Assembly (NCBI GenBank): GCA_017645645.1
Contig: JAGCOB010000012.1
Location: 20,597-84,596 of the forward strand
Length of the DNA: 64,000 nucleotides
Source of the DNA: Prevotella sp.
GTDB lineage: Bacteria > Bacteroidota > Bacteroidia > Bacteroidales > Bacteroidaceae
Reading direction: 5' to 3'
The notes beneath the pieces are model-generated. The model saw only the letters and a program-made list of their open reading frames with translations. It searched no databases and had not been told where the DNA came from. Positions 8,755-61,688 of the stretch are shown here, piece by piece. The position numbers and the translations under genes are program-made. Positions within the stretch are counted from its first letter, which is position 1. Each line of letters starts with the position of its first letter.

Positions 8755-8763
8755 TTTATCAAA

Positions 8764-21681: not shown

Positions 21682-21692
21682 CATTTTAAAAC

Positions 21693-24197: not shown

Positions 24198-25522
24198 AAA
24201 AGAAAACAATCCTAATGGTCCTTGCCCTCCTGTGCAGTTTCGTACAGGGGGCATGGGGCTATACTGTCACCATCTATGAGGCAGCGGCAAGTGGATTGGA
24301 ATATGGTGAACCTAAGAACTCTGGTGGCATTGATGGCGTAGGGTTTCTGCTGGGAAGCCCTGATACTCCCGCATACATGAAGTTCAAAGGCTGGTTGGTG
24401 AATCCAAGCACGCCTCCTACTTCATGGGAATATGTAGACGATGAGGATCTGAAAAGTGGAGGTACGATTATCATGCCCGATGGTGATGTCACGGTCTATG
24501 CTCGCTACGAATATGTCTATGGCACGGCGTGGACATGGGCCAGCGACTACCGTTCTGCCACAGTGAAGATAACTAGTCTGGAGTATCCAGACGACATTGG
24601 CGTTGATATCAACGCAAGTAGTATTACCTCAGAAATTACGGTAGAACCTTCATACGATGAGCCTGGTCAAGTCACTTATACGGCCACGGTGACAATGATG
24701 CGCACAGGTGACAACAAAGTGTTCACCTTTACCGATTCAAAAACTTTATGGCTCGTTTTCCTTGGTGAGGGAAACAATACTACCATGCTCGGCAAGAGCA
24801 ATGGTAAGGAGGCTACCGTCCACCTTACCAATCGCACCCTCTATAAGAATGGCAATTGGAACACGCTCTGCCTGCCCTTCGATCTCGCACTTGAGGGTTC
24901 TCCTCTCAATAACGCCAGCCTGAAAGAATTTTCCTCAGCCTCATTTGCCAACGGCACAATGACGCTCAATTTTACCGATGCCTCAAGCATCGAGGCAGGC
25001 AAGCCCTACCTCATCAAGTGGGACAAACCTAATGATTATGATGGTCATGAGAGCGACTACGATCTCGACCCCTCTAAACTCGTCTTTCGCGGTGTCACTG
25101 TCAACAGCACGGTCAACGATACGCAGTGCTCCATCAATGACGGACAGTCCGTCACCTTCATGGGCACCTATACTCCAAAGAGCATTGCCGCCAGTGGCGA
25201 CCCCTCTTTGCTTTATCTCGGAGCCGGCAACACGCTCTATTATCCCAATGCCGCCATGACCATCGCCAGCCAGCGTGCCTACTTCCAACTCACAGGCATC
25301 TCAGCGGGCAACTTGCCCTCTCTGGCTCGTACCTTTGTGCTTGACTTCGGTGACAGTGAGAACACTACGGGAATCGTGAATGTGGAAGCAAACACTACAC
25401 TCTACACGCATCACTCTTCACTTAAAGACAGTTGGTATGATCTCCAGGGACGTTGTCTCAAAGGTAAACCCACGGCTAAAGGACTATATATTAATAATGG
25501 TGTAAAGGTAATCATAAAATAA
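24194..25522 (+). CDS. Secreted surface protein paralogous to the C-terminal half of 18886-21681
   Basis: Signal peptide (AWG); FKGWL, WNTLCLPF, AGKPYLIKW, LYLGAGNTLYYP; ends WYDLQGR...GLYINNGVKVIIK; ATGA overlap with the upstream gene. Confidence 0.85.
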   Translation: MKKKTILMVLALLCSFVQGAWGYTVTIYEAAASGLEYGEPKNSGGIDGVGFLLGSPDTPAYMKFKGWLVNPSTPPTSWEYVDDEDLKSGGTIIMPDGDVTVYARYEYVYGTAWTWASDYRSATVKITSLEYPDDIGVDINASSITSEITVEPSYDEPGQVTYTATVTMMRTGDNKVFTFTDSKTLWLVFLGEGNNTTMLGKSNGKEATVHLTNRTLYKNGNWNTLCLPFDLALEGSPLNNASLKEFSSASFANGTMTLNFTDASSIEAGKPYLIKWDKPNDYDGHESDYDLDPSKLVFRGVTVNSTVNDTQCSINDGQSVTFMGTYTPKSIAASGDPSLLYLGAGNTLYYPNAAMTIASQRAYFQLTGISAGNLPSLARTFVLDFGDSENTTGIVNVEANTTLYTHHSSLKDSWYDLQGRCLKGKPTAKGLYINNGVKVIIK

Positions 25523-25526
25523 GATA

Positions 25527-39602: not shown

Positions 39603-39777
39603 AAAATATTATTATAATAATGTGTTACTTTGCAATGCCTTTTTTTAAGGCGATGCAAAGGTACTGCTTTTTGCGCACATAGCCAAACAAATTGCACAAA
39701 AAGGGATAAAACGTGCACATTTCTTCCGTTTTGTGCAACAATTTCTTATTTTTTTAAAAAAGAAGTCGTATTGTTCC

Positions 39778-40348
39778 TGTTCTCAGAAATAATTATTATC
39801 TTTGTCGACTGATACAGATAATCAAACAGATACATATGAGAAGATTAGTTACACTGGCCGTTGTCATGATGATGGCGATGACGGCAACATACGCCCAGAA
39901 GCGTACAAGTTACAAGTTTACGTTTAAGTATGCCATTGAAATTGAGTCGCAAGATGAAGCTAACTGCGACGTCTTGTTCGAGATTGTTGACAAACCAGGA
40001 GAGACTCCGTATATCAACTTGGTCAACAATGCGGACAATGACACTGAACGCGAGGAGTTGAAACCTGTCGTCGTATACAAGGAAAACGACAATAGCGTTT
40101 TCTTCTTTAAGGAGGATGGTTCCGAGTTTTACAATCTCAGTATGTCGGTCAAGGGCGGTAATGCCCCCATCTGCATCTTGCTTGTGATGGAAAATGATGA
40201 CAACGGTACACCAAAGCTCCAATATGGTCTTAGCAACGAAGAAGGCACACCCGATAACGCAGAGTGCGCCGCCACCTTCAAGGCCTTGACTGATAATGTG
40301 AAGGCTAATGCACTGAACAACTTTAGTGTCAAGACCCTTCAGTAAGGC
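39778..40348 (+). repeat. Copy 1 of a ~570-bp direct duplication (promoter plus gene)
   Basis: 58 bp of identical upstream sequence including TATCTTTG, the whole CDS and ...CAGTAAGGC match 42719-43277. Confidence 0.95.
39836..40345 (+). CDS. Secreted hypothetical protein, paralogue A (169 aa)
   Basis: Signal peptide (TYA-Q); -7 box at 39797-39804; near-identical second copy in window. Confidence 0.85.
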   Translation: MRRLVTLAVVMMMAMTATYAQKRTSYKFTFKYAIEIESQDEANCDVLFEIVDKPGETPYINLVNNADNDTEREELKPVVVYKENDNSVFFFKEDGSEFYNLSMSVKGGNAPICILLVMENDDNGTPKLQYGLSNEEGTPDNAECAATFKALTDNVKANALNNFSVKTLQ

Positions 40349-42569: not shown

Positions 42570-42722
42570 TCAACTGTTCAAAGGAACCTCTTCCAGAAGG
42601 AAGGGTATAATTCCGACATACATGATGCCGTCTTCATCCATCTAGGCCTTTGCATTTCCGTAGATGATAACGATCTTGCGGAAGAAGTCGCCAGAGTTTT
42701 TTTAGGGAGAAGGTCTCTTGTT
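42570..42722 (-). pseudogene. C-terminal remnant of a second AAA-DUF4143-type gene
   Basis: Manual translation EQETFSL(+1 in A7 run)KNSGDFFRKIVIIYGNAKA*MDEDGIMYVGIIPFLLEEVPLNS*; resembles C-termini of Bacteroidales DUF4143 ATPases (from memory); cut off at the edge of duplication copy 2. Confidence 0.65.
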
Positions 42723-43277
42723 CTCAGAAATAATTATTATCTTTGTCGACTGATACAGATAATCAAACAGATACATATGAGAAGACTAGTTACACTGGCC
42801 GTTGTCACGATGATGGCGATGACGGCAACATACGCCCAGAAGCGTACAAGTTACAAGTTCAGGTTTAAGTATGCCGTTGAAATTGAGATGGAAATTGGAG
42901 CTAACTGCGACGTCTTGTTCGAGATAGTTGACAAACCAGGAGAGACTCCGTATATCAACCTGGTCAACAATGCGGATAATGGCACTGAACGCAATGAGTT
43001 GAAACCTGTTGTCGTATACAAGGAAAGCAACAATAGCGTTTTCTTCTATAAGGAGGATGGTCCCGAGTTTTATGCTCTCTGTATGACGGCCAAGGGCGGC
43101 TGCACCTTGCTTGTGATGGAAAATGATGACAACGGTACGACAACACTCCAATATGGTCTTACCAACATAGAAGGCACACCCGATAACGCAGAGTGCGCCG
43201 CCACCTTCAAGGCCTTGATTGATCATGTGAAGGCTAATGCACTGAACAACTTTACTGTCAAGACCCTTCAGTAAGGC
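42719..43277 (+). repeat. Copy 2 of the ~570-bp direct duplication
   Basis: Matches 39778-40348 with a 12-bp in-frame deletion and scattered substitutions. Confidence 0.95.
42777..43274 (+). CDS. Secreted hypothetical protein, paralogue B (165 aa)
   Basis: Start at ATG 42777 by alignment to paralogue A (the ORF-track extension to 42561 is spurious). Confidence 0.85.
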   Translation: MRRLVTLAVVTMMAMTATYAQKRTSYKFRFKYAVEIEMEIGANCDVLFEIVDKPGETPYINLVNNADNGTERNELKPVVVYKESNNSVFFYKEDGPEFYALCMTAKGGCTLLVMENDDNGTTTLQYGLTNIEGTPDNAECAATFKALIDHVKANALNNFTVKTLQ

Positions 43278-43330
43278 GAAGGACTCTTTTTGAGAACCTT
43301 TATACCTCGATACCCCCAAGCAAAGGACCC

Positions 43331-43438
43331 GATAGGCGGCACCTAACGTATGGATGGGCGGCACCTAACTCATGGATAGGCGGCACCTAATGCATGGATA
43401 TGCGGCATCTAACTCGGGGAAATGGCACCTGACTCTGG
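43331..43438. repeat. 22-bp tandem repeat, four units plus one degenerate
   Basis: GATAGGCGGCACCTAACTCATG consensus at 43331, 43353, 43375, 43397 and degenerate at 43419. Confidence 0.88.
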
Positions 43439-45326: not shown

Positions 45327-45401
45327 CTTCACGCATTTGCACTTTAACTTTTGATATCCCATTTTGAAGGTGCAAAACCCCTTGTGACCTTTGCCGCCGT
45401 T

Positions 45402-47579
45402 ATGATTTGCATAGCATCATCATTTAGCGGCAAGCCTCGCAAGGCGAGCATGGCTGCTTACCGTCAACTGCTGGCGGAGAATCACGTAGAGGAAATCCTT
45501 CAGGACGTGAAGCAGAACAAAAATTTGGATCGCAAGAAGGAGCTGCCCGTGTGGCTGCCTCTTGCACAGTGTTTTAACAATGGTACGCGCAAGGCTGAGG
45601 ACGCAGTATCCTCAGGACTCTTCTTCCTCGATATCGACGAGAAGGGACTGACAGAACAGCTTTGGCAGAAAGTGCAGGACGAGAACCTCATTGGAGAATT
45701 CCGCATCGTCTACTTTGCCGAGAGTGCAGGTGGTGGTACGCACATCTGGGCTTGGCGAACACCAGGAGCAACCATCGAGGAGGACATCCAGAAGTTGGCG
45801 AGTCGCCTGGGTGTCAACTATGACTCGCATGTGACTGATTTAGCGCGCTGCTGTTTTATGGTCAGCGAACAGTATGTGAAGCTGCTTGACCCAGTAGTGT
45901 TTGAGGATCAGCCTTCGTCCCCTGAGTTAGGGGACCATAGGGGTCTGAACGAAGTGCCACCTCTTACTGAAAAGAACGAAAATGGCTCTGAAACTTGTTC
46001 AGACCCCCAACCCCCTAACTTAGGGGGCGTGAACTATAAAGGCATTCCCTACGAGAATATTTTACAGGCTCTGCTTTGGAAGTTGGGCTATGGCGATGCA
46101 CCTGCTGAGGGCGAGCGTAACATGGCTCTCTACACCATGAGTCGCTACCTGCGTTTCATCTGTGACTTCGACGAACAGAAACTCTTTGCGATTCTACCCC
46201 ATTGGGGACTGTCGGATCATGAGGTATTGTCCACCATCAAGAGTGCCATAGGCAGCACACGACCTGCAGGTATTCCTTCGATGATGAACGAGATACTCTC
46301 GTCGTTGGGAGCAGCTATCGAAGCAGGCTCAGCAGAGGCTGAAGAAACGACTGTCGCTCCAGTCGAAGCAGAGTTGCCTGGTATCCTTCAGGACTTGTCC
46401 GACCACGCTCCAGAGGAGTTCCGTGAGGCGACGCTGATAGCAGCAATGCCAATGCTGGGAACGTTGGCATCAGGTATCCGTGCCAAGTATCGCGATGGCA
46501 AGCTGAACTCACCCAGTTTCATCGTAGATATCGAGGCTCCTCAAGCCACAGGTAAGTCGTTTGTTGACAATGAATTTGAGTTGCTGATGGACCCTATCAT
46601 CAAGCAGGACGAGGTGGAATGGCAGAAGGAGATTGCCTATTCGCTGGCGAAGAAAGACGGCGAGGATGTCGAGAATCCTTGTGCCCAGATCCGCATCATC
46701 GAACCCAACATCGGTGTGTCAGCATTCTTGGAGCGTGCCCTCTATGCCAAAGGCAAGCATCTCTTTACCTATGCCCCTGAGATTGAAACGGTATTGAAGA
46801 ACAACAAGGGTGGGGCGTGGACAGAGAAGAACGACCTCTTCCGCCTGGCTTATGACAACAAACCCTGGGGTCAGCATCGCATCTCGAAGGATTCGTTCTC
46901 TGGAAAAATCACCCTCTATTACAATATGGTGATGTGTGGAACACCCAACAAGTGCCGAGCCTTCTTTGCTGATGCGGAGAGTGGATTAGTGAGCCGAGTA
47001 ACACCTGTTATTCTACCTGATATGGTGGGTGCGAAGATGCCTCAGTTCAAGGCATGGAGCCAGGAAGAGGTAGAGAAGGTGAAGCGCCAGTGCCTTTGTC
47101 TGATGGACGAGGAGGGTGAGGTGGATTTGCCGCTCATCAACAAGGCCATCGAGGAATGGGATGAAGGCAAGCGTCAGGAGTATCTGCAGACGTTGCGCTA
47201 CTCTCTTGATGTACTGCGTCGTCGTGCTGCCCTCAATGGTTTCCGAGCCGGCATCATCGCCTATCTGCTCGAAGGTCGTCAGGAAACGGAGCGCGCCATA
47301 AAGTTTGCCCTCTGGTATGCTGAGCGTTGTCTCCACTACCAGTTACAGCTCTATGGCACCAAGATTGATGCTTTGCACAACAACACGTTGAGTCCGCAGA
47401 CTTCGAAGGGTAACATCCGCTATCTGGATGCGTTGCCCAAGGAGTTTACGAAGGAAGACTTGGTAAACCTCCGTCTGTCTAACAACGAGTCGCCAGTAGT
47501 AAAGACCATCATCTACCGCTGGGTAAAAGAAGGTATCGTCGTGAAAACCAACACCAATCTCTGGCAGAAGATCCAATAA
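45402..47579 (+). CDS. BT4734/VirE-N-type primase-polymerase fused to PriCT and DUF3987-like P-loop NTPase
   Basis: AEP-like motifs FFLDID, ESAGGGTHI, DSHVTDLARCCF; EGERNMALY; APQATGKS Walker A; GLVSRV; C-terminal wHTH-like LDALPKEFTKEDL. Confidence 0.82.
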   Translation: MICIASSFSGKPRKASMAAYRQLLAENHVEEILQDVKQNKNLDRKKELPVWLPLAQCFNNGTRKAEDAVSSGLFFLDIDEKGLTEQLWQKVQDENLIGEFRIVYFAESAGGGTHIWAWRTPGATIEEDIQKLASRLGVNYDSHVTDLARCCFMVSEQYVKLLDPVVFEDQPSSPELGDHRGLNEVPPLTEKNENGSETCSDPQPPNLGGVNYKGIPYENILQALLWKLGYGDAPAEGERNMALYTMSRYLRFICDFDEQKLFAILPHWGLSDHEVLSTIKSAIGSTRPAGIPSMMNEILSSLGAAIEAGSAEAEETTVAPVEAELPGILQDLSDHAPEEFREATLIAAMPMLGTLASGIRAKYRDGKLNSPSFIVDIEAPQATGKSFVDNEFELLMDPIIKQDEVEWQKEIAYSLAKKDGEDVENPCAQIRIIEPNIGVSAFLERALYAKGKHLFTYAPEIETVLKNNKGGAWTEKNDLFRLAYDNKPWGQHRISKDSFSGKITLYYNMVMCGTPNKCRAFFADAESGLVSRVTPVILPDMVGAKMPQFKAWSQEEVEKVKRQCLCLMDEEGEVDLPLINKAIEEWDEGKRQEYLQTLRYSLDVLRRRAALNGFRAGIIAYLLEGRQETERAIKFALWYAERCLHYQLQLYGTKIDALHNNTLSPQTSKGNIRYLDALPKEFTKEDLVNLRLSNNESPVVKTIIYRWVKEGIVVKTNTNLWQKIQ
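45917..46028. repeat. REPIN-like inverted doublet in frame inside the primase-helicase gene
   Basis: Left arm GTCCCCTGAGTTAGGGGACCATAGGGGTCTGAAC, right arm GTTCAGACCCCCAACCCCCTAACTTAGGGGGC; second copy at 60651-60726. Confidence 0.88.
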
Positions 47580-48580: not shown

Positions 48581-48679
48581 ATTTCTTTTATTTTAGGTTT
48601 CAATTTGTTTGCAAAGATACAAAAAAGTTTGTAATTGTGTTTTTAGATTGAAATATTTTTGTATATTTGCCCCAACAAT

Positions 48680-50734
48680 ATGAAACGACTGATTGAGAAA
48701 TCACGTTCAGGTGGTATTCCTGCATTATTGTTTGCCACCTTGCTCATCATCCTCATCTTGGGGGTGCAATTTTATATGAGTGTCCGACATGATGAGGGGG
48801 ATGCCCGGAAACTGGTCAACAGGGAAGTGAAAATTGTTGAGCAGTATATCAAAGCTCAGCTCAAAGATGCAGAATTCTCAATGGAGGACATGCGGGATAA
48901 TGTGATTGAGTATATTGACCAACCAAATGAGATTACCCATATCACACAAAGGATTTTGAAGGAGAATCCTTTCCTCAAGGCTGCTGCCGTTGCTTTCGAG
49001 CCCAATTTCTATCCTCAAAAGGGATATTGGTTTGAGCCGCGCAGTACTCGTCAAGGAAATGAAATCATCAGTGATGTTATTGGTAGTGCAGATCATGACT
49101 ATACCAAGATGGAATGGTATCTGTCGGGAATGGCAGGCAGGATAAAACACGGTGTATGGAGTAGTCCTTATATCGACAATTCTCAGGGTAATGCATATAT
49201 CATGTCATTGAGTATGCCCCTCTATCACCAAAACAGGAAAGTGGGTGTTCTCTGCCTTGATATGGAACTGGAATGGATAAAACAGCTATTAAAAAATGTA
49301 GAACCCTATCCGGGTTCTGAGTGCCGGCTGTTAGACAAGAATGGGGTGGTGTTGGTTTCTTCGGACAGTATAGATATCAATAATGGCAATTTCTTCATTG
49401 ACAGCAAACCCATCAAGATCAGTAAAATGTCGGTATTACTCGCCTGTCCCAAGAAAGCCATCTTTGGTGATTCGACGAGGTTGAATCTCGTTATTTTCGG
49501 ACTGTTGTTCTTGGGTATGCTGCTTCTCGGCTATATCGTTCAGCATACAGTCCGTACCATCCTTCACCTTCATGATGTCCGACAGCAGCAGCAAATCATC
49601 AATCAGGAAATGCGTATCGCCCATGGTATCCAGATGGACATCCTCCGAAGTGACTTTCCTCTGGAACTTTGTGCTACCCTGTTGCCCATGAAGGAGGTAG
49701 GCGGTGACCTCTATGATTTCTACCAACAAGACCATATCCTTTATTTTATTATCGGAGATGTCAGTGGAAAGGGTGTTCCTGCGACGATGATGATGGCTGC
49801 TACGGTCAATCTCTTCCGTATGGCCGCCAGTCATTTCAATACACCAGCGGAGATTATGGGTGAAATCAACCGTGTCTTGTCAGCACGCAATCCCAGTCTG
49901 ATATTCGTGACAGCTTTCGTGGGGAAACTAGATACGCAGCATGGACTGTTGACCTATTGTAATGCAGGTCATAATCCTCCAATCCTGAATATGACCCTGT
50001 TACGTACTGATCCAGATATTCCGTTGGGCTATCAGCTCGACTATGATTACCATCAATATGGGGCTATGTTTCCTGAGGGGTCCCGTATCGTGTTGTATAC
50101 TGACGGAATCTTGGAATCCAGGAATAAAGATCATCAAATGATGGGTATGCAATACCTGTTGTCCATCATTAATTCCCATTATACCGAACCTGTTAACGAG
50201 ATGACGGCAAATATCATGAAGGATACCCACCATTATATTGGAAGTTCAGAACAGGTTGACGATATGACCCTGATGTGTGTTGCCAATAATTCTCCCCAAC
50301 AGGTTCCAGCCCTTGTGATTGCCAATGAGATAGAGGAATTGCAGCGTGTGAAGTCCCTATTACGGGAGTATTGCGATTGTCTGGGATGTGAGCGAAAGTT
50401 GACTCGTAAGATATTGTTGGCAGTGGAGGAGGCTGTGGCTAATGTCATCAATTATGCGTATCCAAAGGGGGTGCTGGGAAGGATTGATATCGATATCCAG
50501 GGAACTCCTGCTTCTGGTGGTGACCAGAAAGGCGACCTGACCATCAGTATTATAGACAATGGAGAGCCCTTTGACCCCACCGCACGTCAGGAAGTGGATG
50601 TGGAACAGACAGTTGGAGAACGACAAGTGGGAGGACTGGGCATCTATCTCTATCAACAACTGATGGACAATGTCTGCTACGAACGTGCTGACGATGGACG
50701 TAACATACTTATCATGACCAAAGAAATCAATTAG
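48680..50734 (+). CDS. Membrane Cache-sensor / SpoIIE (PP2C) phosphatase / RsbW-like anti-sigma kinase fusion
   Basis: TM-Cache (WY...WSSPYID)-TM; EVGGDLYD, IGDVSGKG, NAGHNPP, LYTDG, DDMT; AVEEAVANVINYAY, DNGEPFDP, GGLGI. Confidence 0.92.
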   Translation: MKRLIEKSRSGGIPALLFATLLIILILGVQFYMSVRHDEGDARKLVNREVKIVEQYIKAQLKDAEFSMEDMRDNVIEYIDQPNEITHITQRILKENPFLKAAAVAFEPNFYPQKGYWFEPRSTRQGNEIISDVIGSADHDYTKMEWYLSGMAGRIKHGVWSSPYIDNSQGNAYIMSLSMPLYHQNRKVGVLCLDMELEWIKQLLKNVEPYPGSECRLLDKNGVVLVSSDSIDINNGNFFIDSKPIKISKMSVLLACPKKAIFGDSTRLNLVIFGLLFLGMLLLGYIVQHTVRTILHLHDVRQQQQIINQEMRIAHGIQMDILRSDFPLELCATLLPMKEVGGDLYDFYQQDHILYFIIGDVSGKGVPATMMMAATVNLFRMAASHFNTPAEIMGEINRVLSARNPSLIFVTAFVGKLDTQHGLLTYCNAGHNPPILNMTLLRTDPDIPLGYQLDYDYHQYGAMFPEGSRIVLYTDGILESRNKDHQMMGMQYLLSIINSHYTEPVNEMTANIMKDTHHYIGSSEQVDDMTLMCVANNSPQQVPALVIANEIEELQRVKSLLREYCDCLGCERKLTRKILLAVEEAVANVINYAYPKGVLGRIDIDIQGTPASGGDQKGDLTISIIDNGEPFDPTARQEVDVEQTVGERQVGGLGIYLYQQLMDNVCYERADDGRNILIMTKEIN

Positions 50735-52845: not shown

Positions 52846-53463
52846 TTACAGATTTTCTTGCAGAATGTATTCGAAGCAGTCAAAATGGATGAACCCCATC
52901 GCTTCGAGTTGCCTACGACTTTCAACAATATCGGTTTCTTTATTGTAGTCTGGTATATGGGGTAGACGGATGGTTACTTTCTGAACGTCCTCATGTGCAG
53001 AAAGCCAACGGAGATTCTCAATCACCTGGGAGTTGTCGACAGAGGTGTATTGACGGTAGATATCAGGATTCATGTCCTTGATATCAATATAATAATGATG
53101 AACATAGGGAACCACAGCCTCAAGATGTCTGCGGTTCACATTCAGCGAGGTTTCAATGTAGACGTGCCATTCCATAGGCATCAGTTTGCAGAAATTGACT
53201 ATCTCGTCACTTCTCAACAACGGTTCTCCTCCTCCGAAGGTAATGCCTCCGCCTGTTGCCTTGAAATAGAGATCGTCCACCATTACCTGATTCAAGATAT
53301 CCTGCGCATCCATCTGTCGCCACACACCGTCAGGTCTCAGGCACTGCTTGTTCAAGCAGTACTTACAGCACAAAGGACAGCCGTGGAATGCCACCAAGGT
53401 AGTGACACCCTGTCCATCTGTAACCAGACGATGGCGACTGATGCCTATCAATGGGGCTATCAT
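52846..53463 (-). CDS. Radical SAM protein (activating-enzyme-like)
   Basis: DGQGVTTLVAFHGCPLCCKYCLN (CxxxCxxC), GGITFGGGEP, IETS, IDIKD; start ATG 53463. Confidence 0.9.
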   Translation of the reverse strand: MIAPLIGISRHRLVTDGQGVTTLVAFHGCPLCCKYCLNKQCLRPDGVWRQMDAQDILNQVMVDDLYFKATGGGITFGGGEPLLRSDEIVNFCKLMPMEWHVYIETSLNVNRRHLEAVVPYVHHYYIDIKDMNPDIYRQYTSVDNSQVIENLRWLSAHEDVQKVTIRLPHIPDYNKETDIVESRRQLEAMGFIHFDCFEYILQENL

Positions 53464-53464
53464 T

Positions 53465-53872
53465 TCAATTGGAACACTTCTTCTTCTCTGTCGATGAGTC
53501 CGTATCGACACATTCGACATCACCAGCAAGTTCCATCATGCCATCGACTTGTTCCAGTCTTCTGATACTGTCGCTATCCACCACTAATTGTTGCTGGTCC
53601 TTCCCGGTATTCGGGTCTTTCACTTTGTTGGTACAACCTGTCAAGGCGAAAAGCCCTGCAGAGAGTCCCACGACAGCCACAGCCTTGCCCAGTTGCCTGC
53701 GAATGTCCAACTGTTGTTCGATATACCTTACTTCTGCCTCGCAAGCCAGACAGGTTCCGCGACACTCACCCTGATGATGACACTCACGGGGCTCATACTT
53801 GATCTCATTGGCATCGGCCACCTGCTTACGGATGGTCTTCAGCACACTGCAAATAGTCTTTCCTTTTGTCAT
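53465..53872 (-). CDS. Cys-rich N-terminal domain protein with an internal lipobox-like signal
   Basis: GKTICSVLKTIRKQVADANEI...ECHHQGECRGTCLACEAEVRY, then AVAVVGLSAGLFALTGC; ends 1 bp before the radical SAM start; -7 box at 53939-53946 (minus strand). Confidence 0.82.
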   Translation of the reverse strand: MTKGKTICSVLKTIRKQVADANEIKYEPRECHHQGECRGTCLACEAEVRYIEQQLDIRRQLGKAVAVVGLSAGLFALTGCTNKVKDPNTGKDQQQLVVDSDSIRRLEQVDGMMELAGDVECVDTDSSTEKKKCSN

Positions 53873-54080
53873 AATCTTCAGTTATTGATTCGTTATTGAT
53901 TCCGATGCAAGAAACTTCATGATTTTCTTCTTCCGGAACAAAGATACAAAAAGTCGAGAGAAATGCAAAAGGAAAACCTGTTTTTCTTTTCATTTCCGAG
54001 ACGAAATGTCTTCGGCGAAGCCAAAGTTCAGAAAAAAACGGGCGAAAAGTCAAAGTACACTGAAAAAAAGTACACAAAGT

Positions 54081-54111
54081 TTTGGGCATTGCACTATTTT
54101 TCGTATTTTTG
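54081..54111 (+). promoter_or_regulatory. Bacteroidetes sigma-A promoter of the SIR2-TIR operon
   Basis: TTTG (54081-54084), 19 bp, TATTTTTG (54104-54111). Confidence 0.7.
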
Positions 54112-54138
54112 CATCATACTAACCCATACTGGAAACCT

Positions 54139-55455
54139 ATGCCTGCAATATTTAGCAAGATTAGAAAGGAGGATTCTGAAAATACGAGACAATGGGATTT
54201 GCTCGTGACACGCCTGATTGAGGGAAACGTCATCCCCGTGATCGGACCAGGGTTCTTGGTGGACGACGAGAAGGGCAGTAATCCGCATCAAATACTGATA
54301 GACGACTTGGCGGAGGCCTATGAGATCAGTTCACATCCGAAGTCGTTCTCGGAGTTGCTGTACGACAAAAACTTCGATGCAAACGATCGAAAGAACATCT
54401 ACGCCATGTTGGGCGACGCGTTCAGCCAGCCACTGTTCCAGCCTTCCCAACTACTGAAACGGTTGCTAGGCAGCAAGAGGTTTCCCTTTGTGATTACCAC
54501 TTCATTCACTCCCGTGGTAGAGGATACGATGAAGGAGGTCTGGGGGGCCGATCTCGTTCGTGTGATGAAGTTTACAAACGACCCGTCGCATAACGATGAC
54601 ATCAGCACCAAGAGCGATATCAACAAGCCGACGGTGTACTATATGTTCGGCAAGGTGTGTCGCTCGGAGAAGAAGTACGTAGTCACCGACTATGACATGC
54701 TGTCATTCTGCCGCTCGTGGCTGAGTTCGGCAGAGCGACCGCAGAACCTGGCCGCTGAGTTGCAGTCAAAATACCTGCTCATTATGGGTAATGGCTTCTC
54801 GGACTGGCTAAGCCGCTTTGTGTGTTTCTCGCTGAAAGGTAAGATAGACAGCCAGCCTATAGGCATGGTGGTAGACCCCATTGCTGAGGATAGTTTCCTG
54901 CAGTTCATGAAGCGCATTGATGCTTTCACGCAGTTCAATGCCGAGGAGGTGGTGGACAAGATGGAGCATCTGGTGGCTGAACGTGAGGCCGAACTGCAGA
55001 AGACGCGTTTCAACTCGCCGCAGCAAAACACGGATGTCTTTATCAGTTATTCACGGGCCGATGCCGAGGTGACGGCCCAACTGTACGAGGCCCTGACGGC
55101 ACGCGGCATCAATGTGTGGTATGACCGCAACAGCATTAGCATGGGGGGTAACTTCATGAACGAGATCATTGCCGGTATCCGCAGTACGAAACTCTTCGTG
55201 CCTATCATGACCAAGAATATTCAGGCGCAGAGCAATGAATATCACCCCTACCGCACGGAGTGGAAGACAGCCATCGACTTGGCATCGGGCTATGGACGTA
55301 CTTTCATCGTCCCCGTTAGCGAGAAAGACTTCGATTTCTATGGCAGTAATATCCCCGACGAACTGAAGGCCTGTAATGCCTATCTCTACGAAGCTGACAA
55401 GCCGGACTTCGGGGTGTTTGTCGATGAGATAGAGAAATTGCTGGCTAAGATATAG
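54139..55455 (+). CDS. SIR2-like (degenerate) plus TIR domain protein
   Basis: GNVIPVIGPG, FVITTSF, VYYMFGK, LLIMGNGFSDW (SIR2_2-like); DVFISYSRAD...GINVWYD...IRSTKLFVPIMT...YRTEW (TIR_2); start ATG 54139. Confidence 0.85.
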   Translation: MPAIFSKIRKEDSENTRQWDLLVTRLIEGNVIPVIGPGFLVDDEKGSNPHQILIDDLAEAYEISSHPKSFSELLYDKNFDANDRKNIYAMLGDAFSQPLFQPSQLLKRLLGSKRFPFVITTSFTPVVEDTMKEVWGADLVRVMKFTNDPSHNDDISTKSDINKPTVYYMFGKVCRSEKKYVVTDYDMLSFCRSWLSSAERPQNLAAELQSKYLLIMGNGFSDWLSRFVCFSLKGKIDSQPIGMVVDPIAEDSFLQFMKRIDAFTQFNAEEVVDKMEHLVAEREAELQKTRFNSPQQNTDVFISYSRADAEVTAQLYEALTARGINVWYDRNSISMGGNFMNEIIAGIRSTKLFVPIMTKNIQAQSNEYHPYRTEWKTAIDLASGYGRTFIVPVSEKDFDFYGSNIPDELKACNAYLYEADKPDFGVFVDEIEKLLAKI

Positions 55456-55484
55456 CCCTTTTCGAACATAGACAACTACGTGAT

Positions 55485-58400
55485 ATGAGTAAGAGAAACG
55501 ATAATCCATGGAAAGGCCTTGACTCTTATAAGGAGAGTGACCGCTTGTATGGACGCGACGAAGAGATCGAGTTACTGTTCAGCCGCATAGAATATAATAT
55601 CCAGACGGTGGTATACAGCCGCTCGGGCATTGGTAAGTCGTCGATCATCAATGCCGGCATATTCCCCAAGGCGCGGCGAGCCGGCATGTTGCCGATAAGT
55701 ATCCGTTTGCAGCATACCACCAATAAGGACTATCCCACGGCCCCCTATATGGAACAGGTACGCCAGGCTATTGAGAATGAACTGCAGTCGTCTGGCGGTC
55801 GCATTGAGGAACTGGTACCCCATAAGGACGGTCATGAGGAGACTCTTTGGGAATTCCTACACCGGCACCGTTTCTGGTTGAGTGATAAACAGAAGCCTGC
55901 TGTCCCTCTGCTGGTGTTCGACCAATTTGAGGAGATATTTACACTGGAGAAAGACCATCACCGAGTGACAGACTTTTTCAGTCAGGTGGCCGACCTGCTG
56001 AACGGTATCATGCCCGACTACCTGACGGAGGCTGACCATATCGAGGGGACGACAAGCAATGGCATGCTGAACCGTCAGGCACTCTTCCGCGGACTACGTG
56101 GCCGACAGCGTGCCACCATCCAATATCTGACGGAAGATGCCTTCCATATTGTCTTCACATTGCGTGAGGACTATCTCTCCTTCTTGGAGCGCAATACCAG
56201 CCACATCCCTTCGCTCAAGATGAACCGCTACTGTTTGCTGCCCATCAATGAGGAGCAGGCGGCCACCATCATCATGGAACCCCGGCCGGGTCTGGTAGAC
56301 TTGGACGTGGCCAAGCTCATTATAGAGAAAGTGACTGGCGAGACCGACTTTGAACTGGACGGCCGACCGGCCATCTTTGTCGACTCGGCCATCCTGTCAC
56401 TTTATCTGAGTCGTCTGTACGACATCCTACCTGAAGGTGAAGAGAAGATTACTACCCAGTTGGTGAACCAGTTTGGTGACAATATCATCCAGGACTTCTA
56501 CCTGGAAGTCATCGATGGTATGCGTAAGGAGTCCGTCGCCTATCTGGAGGATAACCTGCTCAACAACGAAGGACGTCGGGAAAACATCTCCGTGTATAAC
56601 GCCACCCACGTGGGCGGCCTGACCGAGCAGGAACTGACCTATCTGTGTGAGGAGAAACGACTGCTGCGTCGCTTTGCCTACAGTGGGGACATGCGTCTGG
56701 AATACATCCACGACATTCTGTGTCCTATCATCAAAGACCGCAGGGATATCCGGCAGATGATGAAGGTGCAAGAAGAGGAACGTCAGAAGATTCTGGCGAA
56801 TGAACGTCATAAACGTGAGTTGTTGGAACTGAAGGCCAAGGCCGATCGTCGCCGCTACCGTAACTACATGATAGCGGGCTGTGTAGCCGCTGCTGCCGTA
56901 TTCTTCTTGTGGCTGTACAACTATTACATGAATGTAATGCCCTGTAACTACTATTACGAGTCATTCATCCAGGTCAATGGATGGCCGGTGGGTGTTGGAC
57001 CGCGCCTATCAGAGGAAGAGGCTTTGAAGTTGTCTGTAAGCTACAAGTTGAGCAAGAAGGGCCACAGTCCGGGTACTCCGTTCAATATGATAGAGGTGAT
57101 GAGCAGTGACGGCAAACTGCTGCACAACAAGATGCGCACGCCGCTAGTGAAGCACAGTGAGGTGTCGGATGTGAAGGGCAAGGTCTTCTCGGCCATGCTT
57201 AACAGTACGAAATACTATAAGTTCAGTGCGATAGAGAACTCCAGCACGGCACGTGTGGATAAAATGGAGGCCTTCGACATCAACGGGAAGGTCCTGTATG
57301 TCATTACCTATTTCAAAGCCTTGGAGGACAGGGAGAATTCCGACGGGGATACAGGAGCCTCGTATGTGTGGGCCGTATATACAGACATGAAGGGAGCCCC
57401 TCTGCAGGTCCGCGACAACGGTGCTGACCGCTTCCAGGTGTTCTACAACGAACAGGGTATGGAGGAACGCTATATGTTCTTCGATGAGACTGGTGCCCCC
57501 AAGCAGAACGACCTGGACTGCTTCGGCTACCGTATGCACTATGACAAGGAGAACCGTGTGGACTCGGTATGGACACTGGATCCTTTCGGTGAGGAGGAGT
57601 CGCTGGAGGTGCGGACCTATTCACCAGAGGTGGATGCCTTCACTTTTTACGACCTGAAGGGTCATCGTGCGGTGCAGAAGAAACTGGGTTACCACCAGCG
57701 TGTGGAGACGAAGGACGAAAAGGGCAACATTACTCGTAAGGACTACTACGGTGTCGACCAGAAACTGGTGGACAACAGGCTGCGCCCGGCCATTACTGTT
57801 ATCACGTACGATAAGCTCAACCGTGTGGCAGGCACCAACGATTACGACAATGCCAACCAGCCCTATACGCAGAACCGTAAATACTATGCCCAGCGCGAGT
57901 ATACCTATATCGGCAATACAACAGACGTGCAGAGTGAACTGGACTACCGCTGGAACAGCAAGCGGAAGAAGATGGAGCAGGTGAAGAGTTACGTGGCACG
58001 CCTCTTCGGCAGTGTGACGGAGGAGACGACGATCGATCTGGACAAAAATTATTACCGCATGAAGCGTGTGGAGCATAATGAGGATATGGAACCCGTGTCT
58101 ATCTCGTACTACGGAAAGAACGACAAACCGATGTTCGACAGTATTGACTACTTCCACAAGCATATCACGGAACAGCGTGTACTGCCCAATGGCCAGCGCA
58201 TCGTCGTACACCGTTTCTATGATGTGAACGGTAAGCTGTTCTCTGATCCCGAACACCGTAAATACGCCATCGACTCCTGTATCTATAGTCCCCGCAACCA
58301 GTTGCTAAGCCGCATCTGTTACAGTAGCGACACTGTGGTGGTGCAGTCGCAGGGCTATGAATATAAGGACGGTATTGAGGTTGCTCGTTTCGCACGCGGC

Positions 58401-58988
58401 ATCCATGGCCAGCCCATCCGCTGTCCAAAGTGGGAATGCGACGGACTGAGCTATTACAAGATGCTGAGCGTACGGTCGATTACTGATGCCCTTTCCTATG
58501 TGAAGCCTGTCAGTGAGTACGGCTGTACGTCGTGGGCTTATGACGGTCAAGACCCTTTCGGCAAATTTGAGAGCCGCGATCAGACACTTACTACTTACCG
58601 CATGGGTAGTAACTGGACGAAGACGGCCATTACCATTGTCTATGCCGACCATGTCCCCTTGAATGCCCACTCTGTGGTGTATGTCCACCTGACGCGTTAT
58701 AACTTCCCTGCCGACCGGTTGGGACTGCGCGACGGTGACCTGCTGCTCAGTATAGGTAATTGGAAATACACCTCCGACCCGTCTTCCACTGCCGCTCAGG
58801 GACAGTGGGACAGGATAGGGAAGACCCCTATGAGTATGACGGTGGGACGCTATAACCCCAAAGACCGTAGTTGGAAGGTGCTGACCTTCAAGGTTCCGAC
58901 TTTCCGTGGAGACTTCGGATGCGAGATATACCCCGTCTACTATACGGATGATGAATACAAGGAATACGAGAAACTATTAGCACTATGA
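55485..58988 (+). CDS. nSTAND1-type NTPase with coiled coil, TM helix, YD-like repeats and PDZ-like C-terminus
   Basis: NPWKGLDSY...YGRDEE, SRSGIGKSS, LVFDQFEEIFT, LREDYL, EYIHD; TM YMIAGCVAAAAVFFLWLY; repeats YNEQG, YDKENRV, KDEKGNI, YDKLNRV; PADRLGLRDGDLLLSIGNW. Confidence 0.85.
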   Translation: MSKRNDNPWKGLDSYKESDRLYGRDEEIELLFSRIEYNIQTVVYSRSGIGKSSIINAGIFPKARRAGMLPISIRLQHTTNKDYPTAPYMEQVRQAIENELQSSGGRIEELVPHKDGHEETLWEFLHRHRFWLSDKQKPAVPLLVFDQFEEIFTLEKDHHRVTDFFSQVADLLNGIMPDYLTEADHIEGTTSNGMLNRQALFRGLRGRQRATIQYLTEDAFHIVFTLREDYLSFLERNTSHIPSLKMNRYCLLPINEEQAATIIMEPRPGLVDLDVAKLIIEKVTGETDFELDGRPAIFVDSAILSLYLSRLYDILPEGEEKITTQLVNQFGDNIIQDFYLEVIDGMRKESVAYLEDNLLNNEGRRENISVYNATHVGGLTEQELTYLCEEKRLLRRFAYSGDMRLEYIHDILCPIIKDRRDIRQMMKVQEEERQKILANERHKRELLELKAKADRRRYRNYMIAGCVAAAAVFFLWLYNYYMNVMPCNYYYESFIQVNGWPVGVGPRLSEEEALKLSVSYKLSKKGHSPGTPFNMIEVMSSDGKLLHNKMRTPLVKHSEVSDVKGKVFSAMLNSTKYYKFSAIENSSTARVDKMEAFDINGKVLYVITYFKALEDRENSDGDTGASYVWAVYTDMKGAPLQVRDNGADRFQVFYNEQGMEERYMFFDETGAPKQNDLDCFGYRMHYDKENRVDSVWTLDPFGEEESLEVRTYSPEVDAFTFYDLKGHRAVQKKLGYHQRVETKDEKGNITRKDYYGVDQKLVDNRLRPAITVITYDKLNRVAGTNDYDNANQPYTQNRKYYAQREYTYIGNTTDVQSELDYRWNSKRKKMEQVKSYVARLFGSVTEETTIDLDKNYYRMKRVEHNEDMEPVSISYYGKNDKPMFDSIDYFHKHITEQRVLPNGQRIVVHRFYDVNGKLFSDPEHRKYAIDSCIYSPRNQLLSRICYSSDTVVVQSQGYEYKDGIEVARFARGIHGQPIRCPKWECDGLSYYKMLSVRSITDALSYVKPVSEYGCTSWAYDGQDPFGKFESRDQTLTTYRMGSNWTKTAITIVYADHVPLNAHSVVYVHLTRYNFPADRLGLRDGDLLLSIGNWKYTSDPSSTAAQGQWDRIGKTPMSMTVGRYNPKDRSWKVLTFKVPTFRGDFGCEIYPVYYTDDEYKEYEKLLAL

Positions 58989-60181
58989 CACAAGACCCCT
59001 ATACAAACGAACGGACGATCAGTACACTGAAGGAATCCATCTTGCAACAGGTGGAGAATACTAACGACTCCTCGGTGCTTACTCGCTGTCTGGAGATGTT
59101 GGAGGCAGCCCAAAAACGGCGGGAGGAAGGTGACGAGATTGTCAAGGAGATGGCCGTTATGGGCCAGTTACGCAACAGTATGTCTGACAAGCAGCAGCTA
59201 GTCAGCCATTCTCTGGCCAGCAAAGTGGATAAAGACAGACTTCAGGAAGAAAGCGATACCGTTGATGCTGACGAACCGGCTGCCGACGACCGTAAGCGGA
59301 AGTTCTCGCCTTATGCTCTCCTGCACGACACCGTATCCATTCACCGGCAGGTAGTGGGTGTGTTGGCGGCTATTGCCGTCTGTGCCGTCATCGTGCTGGC
59401 CAGCAAGTATTTCCACTGGGGTTCAAACGATGACGACAAGGAAGTTACAACTGTGGCCACGAAGATAGAGACCATTGAGGTGAACGGCTATCGTTTCAAT
59501 ATGGTACATGTAGACGGAGGTACTTTCACAATGGGAGCTACCGTCCGTGATGGTGAACAGGATAATGACGAACTGCCCGTACAACAGGTAACTCTCAGCA
59601 GCTATTCCATCGGTGAGACAGAGGTGACGCAAGGTCTATGGAAGGCCGTCATGGGTAATCTGCCTGCCACTTTTGACGGTGACAACCATCCGATGAAGAG
59701 TATCAGTTGGGATGACTGTCAGGAGTTTATTGCACAGTTGAATAAACTGACAGGTCATAAGTTCAGGCTGCCTACTGAGGCTCAGTGGGAGTTTGCCGCA
59801 CGTGGTGGAAACCAAAGTAAGAACTACAAGTATGCAGGAAGCAACAACATTGACGAGGTGGCTTGGTACTCAGGTAATGCATGGGATATGGGAAAGGAGT
59901 CACCGGCATTCGGCAACCATACCGTGGGAACCCGCAAGCCCAACGAGTTAGGACTGTATGATATGTCAGGCAACGTATGGGAATGGTGTCAGGACTGCTA
60001 CGAGCACTACGACGGCAAGCCGAAGAAAGATCCTGTCGGACCCCTCGACTCGAAGAATTCCTATCGCGTCAATCGTGGTGGTTCATGGGACTATATCGCA
60101 GAGAGTGCACGCTCCTGTAACCGCCGCAACCGAACCCCTGATTTCCGTAACTTCAATCTCGGCATGCGTCTGGCAGAATAG
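58985..60181 (+). CDS. Membrane-anchored FGE-sulfatase (formylglycine-generating-enzyme fold) domain protein
   Basis: TM VVGVLAAIAVCAVIVLA; GGTFTMG, ETEVTQGLW, RLPTEAQWEFAARGG, PNELGLYDMSGNVWEWC, RVNRGGSW, LGMRL; ATGA overlap with the NTPase gene. Confidence 0.92.
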   Translation: MTQDPYTNERTISTLKESILQQVENTNDSSVLTRCLEMLEAAQKRREEGDEIVKEMAVMGQLRNSMSDKQQLVSHSLASKVDKDRLQEESDTVDADEPAADDRKRKFSPYALLHDTVSIHRQVVGVLAAIAVCAVIVLASKYFHWGSNDDDKEVTTVATKIETIEVNGYRFNMVHVDGGTFTMGATVRDGEQDNDELPVQQVTLSSYSIGETEVTQGLWKAVMGNLPATFDGDNHPMKSISWDDCQEFIAQLNKLTGHKFRLPTEAQWEFAARGGNQSKNYKYAGSNNIDEVAWYSGNAWDMGKESPAFGNHTVGTRKPNELGLYDMSGNVWEWCQDCYEHYDGKPKKDPVGPLDSKNSYRVNRGGSWDYIAESARSCNRRNRTPDFRNFNLGMRLAE

Positions 60182-61667
60182 TCTGCACCTTCGGCCAATT
60201 GACGAGAAAGAGGTGTTCGGTGGCTCGTGTGAAGGCGGTATAGAGCCAGTGGATATAGTCGCTTGAAAGCATGTCGTCCGTCATATAGCCTTGGTCGATA
60301 TAGACATGTGCCCACTGACCGCCCTGTGCCTTATGACAAGTGGCGGCATAGGCAAACTTGATCTGCAAGGCGTTATAGTATTTGTCTTCCTTGAGTTTCT
60401 TCAGGCGGTCATGCTTATAGGGAATGTCTGCATAGTCCTCCATCACCTTATTATATAATTGTTCCTGTTGCTTATGTGTCAGGGCTGGAGCCTCAGAAGT
60501 CAGTGTGTCGAGAATCACCATCGCCGTCAATTCATAATCGTCATAGTCGGGGAAGGTCATCGTTACCTCAGCGAATCGGAAGCCATACTGTTCATGGACA
60601 TTCCTGACACGACGCACTACTACATGGTCGCCGTTGGCAATGAACTCTAAGCCCCCTAAGTTAGGGGGTTGGGGGTCTGAAGATTGGCTCTTGTTCAGAC
60701 CCCTGTTGTCCCCTAACTTAGGGGACACAGACACCCAGTAATAGTTATTCTTCACGATCATCAACTGATCACCAGTGGTGAGTTCCTCCTCCCGTCCCAG
60801 TACCATGTTACGGATTCCCTGATTATAGATATTTGCCCGCTTGTTGCTACGGGTGATGACCATCGTCTCGTCAATGCCCACCTTTGAATAACTGCTTGCC
60901 AGTGACTCTATCAACTCATCACCCGGCACCACCTTGATATCGGAAAAGCCTGAGAAACGAATCTGAGGCAATTGGGGACTCCCCTCTCTTGTAGGAGAGG
61001 GCCTGGGGGTGAGGTTCCTTATCCTCGTCGCATTAAACAAAATACCTGACTCCTGACTCTGCCGCAACACCTCGTTGAGGTCACACTCATGGACATGCAA
61101 GCCATAGGAACTCAGGATCTCTGACATCAGGGCAGGACTCTCTTCCTCACCGACAGGCGGCAACTGGGCACGGTCACCTATAAACAGCATCCTGCAGTTA
61201 CGCCCGTTATATACAAACTGGATGAGGTCATCCAATAATTGTCCGTTGGCGAAAGGAGTGTCACCGTAGTTTGATGCATTGGCAATCATCGAGGCCTCGT
61301 CAACGATAAACAGCGTGTCCTGCATCATGTTATAGTTCAATTCAAAAGCACCCTCCAAGGATTTCTGCCGATAGATACGGCGGTGGATGGTATAGGCAGG
61401 ATGGCTGGCATAGAGTGAGAAGATCTTGGCGGCACGTCCTGTCGGGGCTAGTAATGCGATTTTCTGTTGGAGTGATACCATGGCTTTGACAATGGCGGCG
61501 GCAAGGGTCGTCTTACCAGTTCCTGCCGAGCCTCGCATCACCATTGCCGCATGTTCATGACGGTCTGTCATGAACATCGCAAAGACATCCATTGCTTGTT
61601 CCTGTTCTTCTGTTGGAATATGTCCGAAGACAGAACGGATGCGGTATTTCAGTTCGTCAGTAATCAT
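60153..61667 (-). CDS. RecD-like SF1 helicase/ATPase
   Basis: GSAGTGKT, LAPTGRAA, TIHR, VDEASM, IGDRAQLPPV, LNEVLRQ, YAATCHKAQG, WLYTAFTRA; start ATG 61667. Confidence 0.92.
   Translation of the reverse strand: MITDELKYRIRSVFGHIPTEEQEQAMDVFAMFMTDRHEHAAMVMRGSAGTGKTTLAAAIVKAMVSLQQKIALLAPTGRAAKIFSLYASHPAYTIHRRIYRQKSLEGAFELNYNMMQDTLFIVDEASMIANASNYGDTPFANGQLLDDLIQFVYNGRNCRMLFIGDRAQLPPVGEEESPALMSEILSSYGLHVHECDLNEVLRQSQESGILFNATRIRNLTPRPSPTREGSPQLPQIRFSGFSDIKVVPGDELIESLASSYSKVGIDETMVITRSNKRANIYNQGIRNMVLGREEELTTGDQLMIVKNNYYWVSVSPKLGDNRGLNKSQSSDPQPPNLGGLEFIANGDHVVVRRVRNVHEQYGFRFAEVTMTFPDYDDYELTAMVILDTLTSEAPALTHKQQEQLYNKVMEDYADIPYKHDRLKKLKEDKYYNALQIKFAYAATCHKAQGGQWAHVYIDQGYMTDDMLSSDYIHWLYTAFTRATEHLFLVNWPKVQTILPDACRD
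60651..60726. repeat. REPIN-like inverted doublet in frame inside the RecD-like gene
   Basis: Coding strand GTCCCCTAAGTTAGGGGACAACAGGGGTCTGAAC...TTCAGACCCCCAACCCCCTAACTTAGGGGGC; 31 nt of the right arm identical to 45998-46028. Confidence 0.88.
60978..61014. repeat. Second REP-like palindrome in frame inside the RecD-like gene
   Basis: ACTCCCCTCTCTTGTAGGAGAGGGCCTGGGGGTGAGG; encodes LTPRPSPTREGS on the minus strand. Confidence 0.7.
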
Positions 61668-61688
61668 ATTTTCATGCAAAGATACAAA

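Follow-up and report, generated by a model that had tools for sequence, protein, structure and literature searches.

A Prevotella operon pairs a pseudo-SIR2–TIR protein with a predicted membrane-spanning nSTAND1 receptor

A 64,000-nucleotide (nt) stretch of Prevotella sp. DNA (GenBank assembly GCA_017645645.1, contig JAGCOB010000012.1, positions 20,597–84,596 of the forward strand; this whole stretch is called the window here and its own numbering is used throughout) carries an operon of three genes, g1, g2 and g3, whose conserved core joins a cytoplasmic protein with a degenerate SIR2-like domain and a TIR domain (g1) to a STAND ATPase of the nSTAND1 family that is predicted to span the inner membrane (g2). 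The third gene encodes a membrane-anchored protein with the fold shared by formylglycine-generating enzyme (FGE) and the C-lectins. We read the operon, with about even confidence, as a membrane-spanning, periplasm-sensing NLR-like (STAND) receptor of immune or conflict type that activates a TIR NADase. The domain layout given in a preliminary description of this DNA is supported, as is its inside/outside topology, which stays a prediction. In its architecture the operon is a distinct form of a computationally catalogued, uncharacterised kind, the syntax of a TIR gene followed by nSTAND1 with a transmembrane (TM) helix having already been tabulated (PMC8195603).

The association between g1 and g2 was followed through a comparative set of 80 genome loci, built with our own open reading frame calling, phmmer searches and clustering. 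Nearly all of these loci belong to gut or rumen Bacteroidales (Prevotella, Bacteroidaceae, Muribaculaceae, Paludibacteraceae, Alistipes and others), and relatives of similar length fall into at least 566 g2-type and at least 1,014 g1-type protein clusters, nearly all unnamed; the window itself is 98% identical to a rumen Prevotellaceae metagenome-assembled genome. The SIR2-like–TIR gene lies directly upstream of the STAND gene, on the same strand, at all 79 loci with upstream DNA. Of the loci from other orders or classes of the phylum, 3 of 3 examined have the same arrangement, the SIR2-like–TIR gene next to a membrane-helix STAND gene. On a Haliscomenobacter plasmid the upstream place is taken by a SIR2-like gene without TIR, in which Phe likewise replaces the His, and after it come an nSTAND1 gene with a membrane helix and separate WD40 genes. 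A hydrophobic segment was present in 73 of the 80 STAND proteins, nearly always at about residue 420–530, including those with unrelated C-terminal regions.

The pair g1 plus g2 is therefore the conserved unit, and the expectation that all three genes would occur together across genomes was not borne out. Of the 11 closest loci (at least 58% identity), 10 have a TM-FGE gene such as g3 next after g2, and 7 of these 10 keep the ATGA overlap between the two genes. Outside this clade the next one or two genes mostly encode signal-peptide-bearing paralogs of the g2 ectodomain, about 370–1,400 amino acids (aa) long (35 at the +1 position and 17 at +2), some related operons add single-pass TIR-TM-FGE, TIR-TM-WD40 or TIR-TM-unknown proteins, and distant members have had their g2 ectodomains swapped outright. 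One could suppose that g3 is a passenger, that g1 and g2 alone form the functional unit and that the FGE-fold gene merely shares their transcript, as g3-type genes come after g2 only in the closest clade and the next gene in 52 other places encodes an unrelated long secreted protein. We think this rather improbable, given that 10 of the 11 closest loci retain g3, in most cases along with the 4-nt overlap, that its cytoplasmic motif is conserved, and that homologous FGE ectodomains are found in TIR-TM-FGE proteins of two distant operons of the family (loci L043 and L101). We conclude that g3 belongs to a set of interchangeable outer components and is the one specific to this clade, translationally coupled to g2.

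As a separate observation, the TIR-TM-outer-domain proteins (L043:15863-17107, L101:11788-13317, L086:13320-15851 and L088:14130-15371) resemble Toll-like receptors in their build, with TIR on the cytoplasmic side of the one membrane helix and the FGE lectin fold, WD40 propeller or unknown domain on the outer side, and the FGE, WD40 and unknown types alike share operons with the pair of pseudo-SIR2–TIR and membrane STAND genes.

A scan of g1 for a hydrophobic segment found none, and its ATG at 54139 was taken as the conserved start because Met1 aligned in 96% of 76 homologs. Pfam recognizes SIR2_2 at residues 118–238 (E = 1e-6) and TIR_2 at residues 300–395 (E = 1e-17), and the structures closest to the AlphaFold model (pLDDT, the predicted local distance difference test, of 85.9) are those of the ThsA, KomC, DSR2 and Avs5 SIR2 domains. 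Against solved SIR2 NADases (the KomBC SIR2 9v0g, its Asn/His double mutant 9v12, and KomC), the family profile shows the catalytic Asn replaced by Ser122 and the catalytic His by Phe170, so that g1 keeps the fold of the ThsA/DSR2/KomC-type enzymes and lacks the two residues that define their activity. Each substitution is at least 90% conserved in the family, and the SIR2 half, which had been called degenerate at the outset, is therefore read from the alignment as a conserved pseudo-enzyme.

The TIR half looks different. Its profile matches the TIR domains of AbTIR and SARM1 at 3e-10, and D299, F301, S303–R306, W327, D329 and the run H369-x-Y371-R372-x-E374-W375 show little or no variation. 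Catalytic TIRs are expected to carry a conserved glutamate at the start of helix alpha-C. Glu374, within the motif H-x-Y-R-x-E-W, does not vary among the 76 homologs and aligns with the canonical W-x-x-K-E glutamate of 13 other TIRs from related loci; the glutamate thus proves as intact as had been proposed, and the TIR domain is probably catalytic. A different role for g1 would have its TIR domain make a signal for a separate effector, or act as a scaffold, rather than deplete NAD+, with the dead SIR2-like domain serving, by analogy with ThsA, as a nucleotide-binding regulatory module. The whole g1 model does align with ThsA (SIR2 plus SLOG) over 450–520 columns, and genes for RyR-domain, channel-like and Macro-domain proteins are found repeatedly in the vicinity of family members; yet the window operon holds no candidate downstream effector, and most loci have no RyR or Macro neighbour. 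We consider such a role unlikely.

Residues 8–267 of g2 match nSTAND1 (PF20703) at 80.6 bits against a cut-off of 27.1 (E = 2e-22). Both the Walker A motif, of the form GxxxxGK[ST] (G48, G50, K51 and S52), and Walker B (D146-Q-F-E-E150) are intact and invariant in 42 homologs. The hydrophobic segment at residues 459–481 has six Lys or Arg before it and none after, a bias that puts the NTPase on the cytoplasmic side and residues 482–1167 outside, in the predicted periplasmic position. The stretch just before this segment, at first described as a coiled coil, is read from the sequence as a charged helix. The model of this ectodomain (pLDDT 84.8) is an array of beta-hairpins resembling the Rhs cores of type VI secretion systems (T6SS), the YD shells of teneurins and the BC components of Tc toxins (Foldseek E values to 1e-12; VIA Z 8.5–8.7), a likeness to Rhs shells that is local and not global (TM-score 0.1–0.24). 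Pfam detects RHS_repeat in the ectodomain of a relative (locus L080); in g2 it finds neither RHS_repeat nor a toxin domain. A reading of the ectodomain as an Rhs/YD toxin was considered and ruled out, as there is no toxin domain, the C-terminus is a PDZ domain and the match to the shells is only local.

That C-terminal PDZ domain (residues 1062–1151) is recovered both by fold (VIA Z 8.3; root-mean-square deviation 2.6 Å over 81 residues) and by profile: nearly all matches of its profile in the PDB are PDZ domains, the best at 1.7e-5 (DegP/DegQ, HtrA2, RseP), and most of them are extracytoplasmic, peptide-sensing ones (DegP/DegQ, RseP/MucP, CtpB and DegS). Pfam PDZ_6 appears in this region only below threshold and in 7 of the 42 members. 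The order of parts first given for g2 (NTPase, membrane helix, YD-like hairpins, PDZ-like end) thus stands, with the YD array narrowed to a local resemblance. Mean column identity is 51% in the cytoplasmic module and 30% in the ectodomain. A complex prediction for the cytoplasmic module of g2 together with g1 scored 0.37, with a single control at 0.23, and we count it neither for nor against binding.

The N-terminal segment of g3 carries a motif conserved within the clade (EGDEIV..M.V..QLR...SDKQ.L), and the three-part build proposed for this protein, a short cytoplasmic segment, a membrane helix at about residues 120–143 and an FGE fold, is upheld. Its best solved relative is TvpA, the variable protein of a Treponema diversity-generating retroelement (DGR), at 1e-26. 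Despite the strong match to the FGE fold (E = 1e-48), alignment with the enzyme 6muj leaves a gap at the catalytic site, and the Cys pair of formylglycine-generating enzymes is missing; judged by these residues, the fold is non-catalytic. DGR diversification of g3 was also considered and ruled out: no repeat of the 3′ end of g3, as a template would be, was found in the window or the genome, no reverse transcriptase (RVT_1) matched in the source genome, which is 64% complete, and the C-terminus is conserved, not hypervariable, across nine clade members.

Taken together, these features suggest the following course of events. With g2 in the inner membrane, its nSTAND1 ATPase would face the cytoplasm and its Rhs/YD array and PDZ domain the periplasm, where g3 would serve as a clade-specific, membrane-anchored co-receptor with a non-catalytic C-lectin fold; in other members, secreted ectodomain paralogs or TIR-TM-lectin and TIR-TM-WD40 proteins may fill that role. 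A periplasmic cue would engage the ectodomain, with phage ejection or tail components and injected or imported toxins as candidates, along with the exposed C-termini of damaged envelope proteins, which the PDZ domain may bind. Engagement would lead to NTP-dependent oligomerization of the cytoplasmic STAND modules, the oligomers would cluster g1, docked through its catalytically dead SIR2-like domain, and the clustered TIR domains would form active NAD+-cleaving assemblies, with NAD+ depletion or an ADP-ribose-derived signal bringing about cell arrest. The ligand, the oligomerization, the contact between g1 and g2, the NADase activity and a protective phenotype are what we infer from the layout. 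More speculatively, and we would sooner doubt than assert it, the operon might be a bacterial Toll/NLR hybrid that detects periplasmic attack before, or without, cytoplasmic entry and signals by STAND oligomerization to a separate TIR NADase recruited through a pseudo-SIR2 adaptor, its interchangeable co-receptors (FGE lectin, YD paralogs, TIR-TM proteins) setting specificity.

Several lines of evidence favour an immune-type receptor. They include the strict g1–g2 pair, the invariant Walker motifs and the positive-inside membrane helix; the sensor-like evolution seen in the lower identity of the ectodomain and in the ectodomain swaps; the translational coupling of g2 and g3; the immune-type folds to which g1 is closest, its Glu374 and the extracytoplasmic PDZ matches of g2; and a patchy, accessory spread together with conflict-type genes in related loci (TIR, CHAT-TPR, trypsin-like, kinase, RyR and Macro).

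Other observations weigh against it. We know of no characterized STAND protein that senses across a membrane, nor of a route by which a single helix would transmit such a signal. HMMER alignments to AbTIR and SARM1 put the catalytic glutamate two to four residues from E374, and because of this offset the register of E374 rests on the custom alignment of the 13 TIRs. The core mechanism cannot depend on g3, which most family members lack. PADLOC and NCBIfam searches matched no system to the operon, in line with the initial view that its layout fits no characterized system, and returned nothing for g2 or g3 and only generic TIR models for g1. A search of 50,697 phage records gave no homolog, and on plasmids the matches were limited to distant cyanobacterial, actinobacterial or Haliscomenobacter nSTAND1 proteins. 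The 44 flanking genes that we sampled are mostly housekeeping: Pfam most often found TIR_2 (5), followed by RyR (2) and Macro (2), and PADLOC gave a strong match to a known defence gene at one locus (PARIS AriAB) and two weaker matches, one to mad3 and one to a TIR model.

The association with known defence genes is accordingly weak, and the module keeps company with conflict-type domains and is not in classic phage-defence islands. Gene clusters encoding CHAT-TPR, trypsin-like, kinase-like and RyR-domain proteins recur in 8–19 of the 80 loci. This second gene set shares the strand of the core pair (for example L033:189-7451, L038:6927-7571 and L072:4005-4307) and also holds an unannotated membrane protein of about 500–780 aa. 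The Macro-domain genes, a class associated with ADP-ribose binding or hydrolysis, make up 2 of the 44 sampled flanking genes.

The operon might instead encode a non-immune sensor of envelope stress or homeostasis, in which the PDZ and YD domains monitor the integrity of the envelope or the misfolding of outer-membrane proteins, in the manner of DegS and RseP, and the STAND–TIR part adjusts physiology through NAD+ or a messenger derived from ADP-ribose. The resemblance of the g2 PDZ domain to those of DegP/DegQ, DegS and RseP/MucP that read exposed C-termini would suit such a sensor, as would loci set among housekeeping genes with few known defence neighbours and an operon GC content that is the same as that of its flanks and carries no foreign signal. 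A housekeeping sensor should, however, be widespread, whereas no g2 homolog was found in any of 24 other species of the genus (0 of 24), g1 is present in 5 of 391 good genomes sampled evenly across the order, leaving about 99% of them without the module, and the SIR2-like profile in 4 of 400 genomes of the phylum. The module is rare, patchy and accessory. Its outer domains are moreover swapped between members, and elsewhere both TIR and the ThsA/DSR2-type SIR2 fold are known as parts of conflict systems; an envelope-stress role therefore seems to us improbable, though not negligible.

An immune-type receptor could also be directed at bacterial attack, sensing T6SS effectors delivered to the periplasm, Rhs-type or bacteriocin-like toxins, or the damage they do in dense gut communities. 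A periplasmic sensor would sit where such toxins act, the g2 ectodomain and the secreted paralogs are of Rhs/YD type, the module in our set is confined to gut and rumen Bacteroidales, and it was found neither on phages nor in phage-defence islands. On the other hand, the sampled flanks contain no T6SS, immunity or toxin genes, the secreted paralogs have no recognizable toxin domain, and the sequence level gives no distinction from phage sensing. We give bacterial attack as the specific trigger only a slim chance, and return to the broader reading of an immune or conflict receptor that senses the periplasm.

The window sequence recurs with hardly a change in gut metagenomes of cattle and goats, from about ten studies. 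Three DNA runs, each from a different gut metagenome study, have one contig that spans approximately 53,970–60,258. The assembly branches at both ends of these contigs and their summed depth is lower than that of the flanks, a comparison in which the left flank contains a promoter motif that is common and each depth is a total across organisms; strain-variable carriage of the operon is one possible cause, repeats or conserved flanks another. In one bovine metatranscriptome, parts of g1, g2 and g3 are covered by contigs, but this does not prove that they are transcribed.

Among described systems the nearest are the nSTAND1 operons of Kaur et al. 2021 (eLife, PMC8195603), who named nSTAND1 and described fusions of STAND with FGS (FGE) domains as intracellular invader sensors. 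Section 8 of their Fig. 2 source data 1 lists many 'TIR(+DrHyd) -> nSTAND1+TM+BetaPropeller' and 'TIR -> nSTAND1+TM' operons, from Cytophagales, Flavobacteriales, Verrucomicrobia, Acidobacteria and others, without experiments; no 'SIR2+TIR' entry was found in their tables, nor the gut and rumen genera of our family. The window operon shares with these the PF20703 clade, a TIR gene directly upstream and a membrane helix after the NTPase, followed by a beta-rich domain. It differs in having a pseudo-SIR2–TIR partner, an outer part of Rhs/YD and PDZ domains in place of a propeller, and an extra TM-FGE gene, whose lectin fold is predicted to be periplasmic, unlike the intracellular lectin-fold sensors of their main text. 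Dore et al. 2024 (PNAS, PMC10907252) report that some C-lectin sensors of STAND conflict systems are predicted to be periplasmic, and a 2026 survey of STAND proteins (Nature, PMC13581612) includes FGE sensors in its Fig. 1c, its main text being silent on membrane-spanning forms. Our literature search found no experimental work on any family member and no characterized system with this layout. The suggestion that the layout has no known precedent consequently holds for characterized examples, and not in the sense of being wholly undescribed, given the syntax tabulated in PMC8195603.

The antiviral, NLR-like STAND proteins of the Avs/AVAST and bNACHT groups, among them the SIR2-STAND protein Avs5, are described as single cytoplasmic polypeptides with the effector fused and a cytoplasmic sensor that binds phage proteins. 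The window operon has in common with them the STAND NTPase switch logic and a putative NAD+-targeting effector, and the SIR2-like fold of g1 matches that of Avs5 filaments; it departs from them in that the SIR2 domain is dead, the sensor lies beyond a membrane helix and, as had been pointed out from the beginning, the effector is encoded by a gene separate from that of the STAND protein. With the effector unfused, the sensor past the membrane helix and no PADLOC or NCBIfam match, g2 is not an Avs/AVAST protein. Thoeris likewise combines a TIR domain with a SIR2 fold of the ThsA kind, whereas g1 fuses SIR2 and TIR in one protein, its SIR2 domain lacks the catalytic Asn and His, and its obligatory partner is a membrane STAND protein; no SLOG domain was detected in g1, its NCBIfam Thoeris score was 38 bits against a cut-off of 220, and with an inactive SIR2 it does not qualify as Thoeris.

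For g3, the parallel is with STAND/NACHT-FGE sensors, in which a non-catalytic FGE/C-lectin fold is tied to a STAND system, and with DGR variable proteins such as T. denticola TvpA. In contrast to the STAND/NACHT-FGE and DGR proteins, g3 bears its lectin fold on a separate membrane-anchored protein, without a template repeat and with a conserved C-terminus, and it is not a DGR variable protein. Animal Toll-like receptors offer an analogy only, in their outward ligand-binding domain, single membrane helix and TIR output; here the TIR domain is on a separate soluble protein and an NTPase switch is interposed, which makes the likeness one of function and not of whole-receptor homology. The PDZ fold of g2 resembles those with which the envelope sensors DegS and RseP read exposed C-termini, although, unlike these, the window operon has no protease domain.

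The three genes are co-oriented open reading frames on the + strand (g1, 54139–55455, 438 aa; g2, 55485–58988, 1,167 aa; g3, 58985–60181, 398 aa), and their features are collected in Table 1. Both junctions were read directly from the sequence and are as first described: the g1 stop codon TAG at 55453–55455 and the g2 ATG at 55485 leave a gap of 29 nt, and g2 and g3 have in common an ATGA at 58985–58988, a 4-nt overlap. At its own end g3, with its stop at 60181, shares 29 nt with the 3′ end of the RecD-like helicase gene (60153–61679), which converges on it. The preliminary description had set the operon between rmuC and the RecD-like gene, which is right on the RecD-like side; on the other, a radical-SAM gene (52846–53529) intervenes before rmuC, both of these being on the opposite strand. 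It had also proposed a single promoter, and the site in question fits the Bacteroidetes consensus, TTTG-N19-TAnnTTTG, which occurs six times in the window, where chance would give 0.37, and nowhere within the operon; a sigma-70 scan gave no match at this position. Direct repeats flanking the operon were looked for and not found, and with its flank-like GC content the operon shows neither of these marks of horizontal transfer. The RecD-like/DUF3822/RsmD side is syntenic in five congeners and the other side is not, and as synteny held on that one side only, no clean empty site could be demonstrated in congeners.

Table 1 Features of the operon and its promoter, in window coordinates.
Feature	Residues (aa)	Position (nt)	Strand	Basis
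Bacteroidetes-type promoter match, TTTG-N19-TAnnTTTG		54081–54111	+	28 nt upstream of g1 ATG
g1, cytoplasmic pseudo-SIR2 + TIR protein	438 in all	54139–55455	+	Pfam, homolog alignment
g1, SIR2-like domain	~19–260	54193–54918	+	profile alignment to solved SIR2 NADases
g1, TIR domain	~296–420	55024–55398	+	Pfam TIR_2, E 1e-17
g2, cytoplasmic nSTAND1 NTPase module	1–420	55485–56744	+	Pfam; Walker motifs
g2, charged juxtamembrane helix	421–458	56745–56858	+	read from sequence
g2, single membrane helix, N-terminus inside	459–481	56859–56927	+	hydrophobicity, K/R bias
g2, periplasmic Rhs/YD-type beta-hairpin array	482–1061	56928–58667	+	structure model comparison
g2, C-terminal PDZ-fold domain	1062–1151	58668–58937	+	profile versus PDB; structure comparison
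g3, cytoplasmic N-terminal segment	1–119	58985–59341	+	sequence; clade alignment
g3, signal-anchor membrane helix	~120–143	59342–59413	+	hydrophobicity
g3, periplasmic FGE/C-lectin-fold domain	172–397	59498–60175	+	Pfam FGE-sulfatase, E 1e-48

Elsewhere in the window we noted several further features. Within the RecD-like helicase gene, at 60646–60731, lies a palindromic doublet whose arms, with CCCCTAACTTAGGGG, are 42 nt apart. Two arrays of 22-nt tandem iterons occur at 43309–43418 and 8761–8848, the first just upstream of genes that include one for a DUF3987 protein (45351–47579); this array may be the replication or transfer origin of a mobile element. A segment of about 570 nt (blocks of 300 and 178 nt) is duplicated at 39775–40348 and 42716–43277, the copies being 94% identical and about 2.9 kb apart. 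At 19417–19959 an in-frame repeat with a period of 87 nt (at least six copies, 61–72% identical) encodes a Gly-rich repeat protein, and roughly 3.8 kb separate a pair of paralogous regions downstream of it (21022–21684 and 24833–25525). A single protein encoded at 48659–50734 combines a dCache/PDC sensor, a SpoIIE phosphatase and an HATPase_c_2 domain of anti-sigma kinase type; it looks like an ordinary partner-switching sensor, with a notable fusion of domains.

To our knowledge, every characterized bacterial STAND or NLR-like defence protein senses its trigger in the cytoplasm. The large, unnamed family of gut and rumen Bacteroidota to which this operon belongs puts its predicted sensor outside the inner membrane. 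If it is indeed an immune receptor, bacteria would survey the periplasm too with NLR-type switches, a dead SIR2 enzyme could act as the adaptor for a TIR effector, and the variable third gene would offer a natural handle on the exchange of specificity. Cultured carriers, among them Prevotella sp. tf2-5 and Bacteroides ilei Marseille-P3208, make the question testable.

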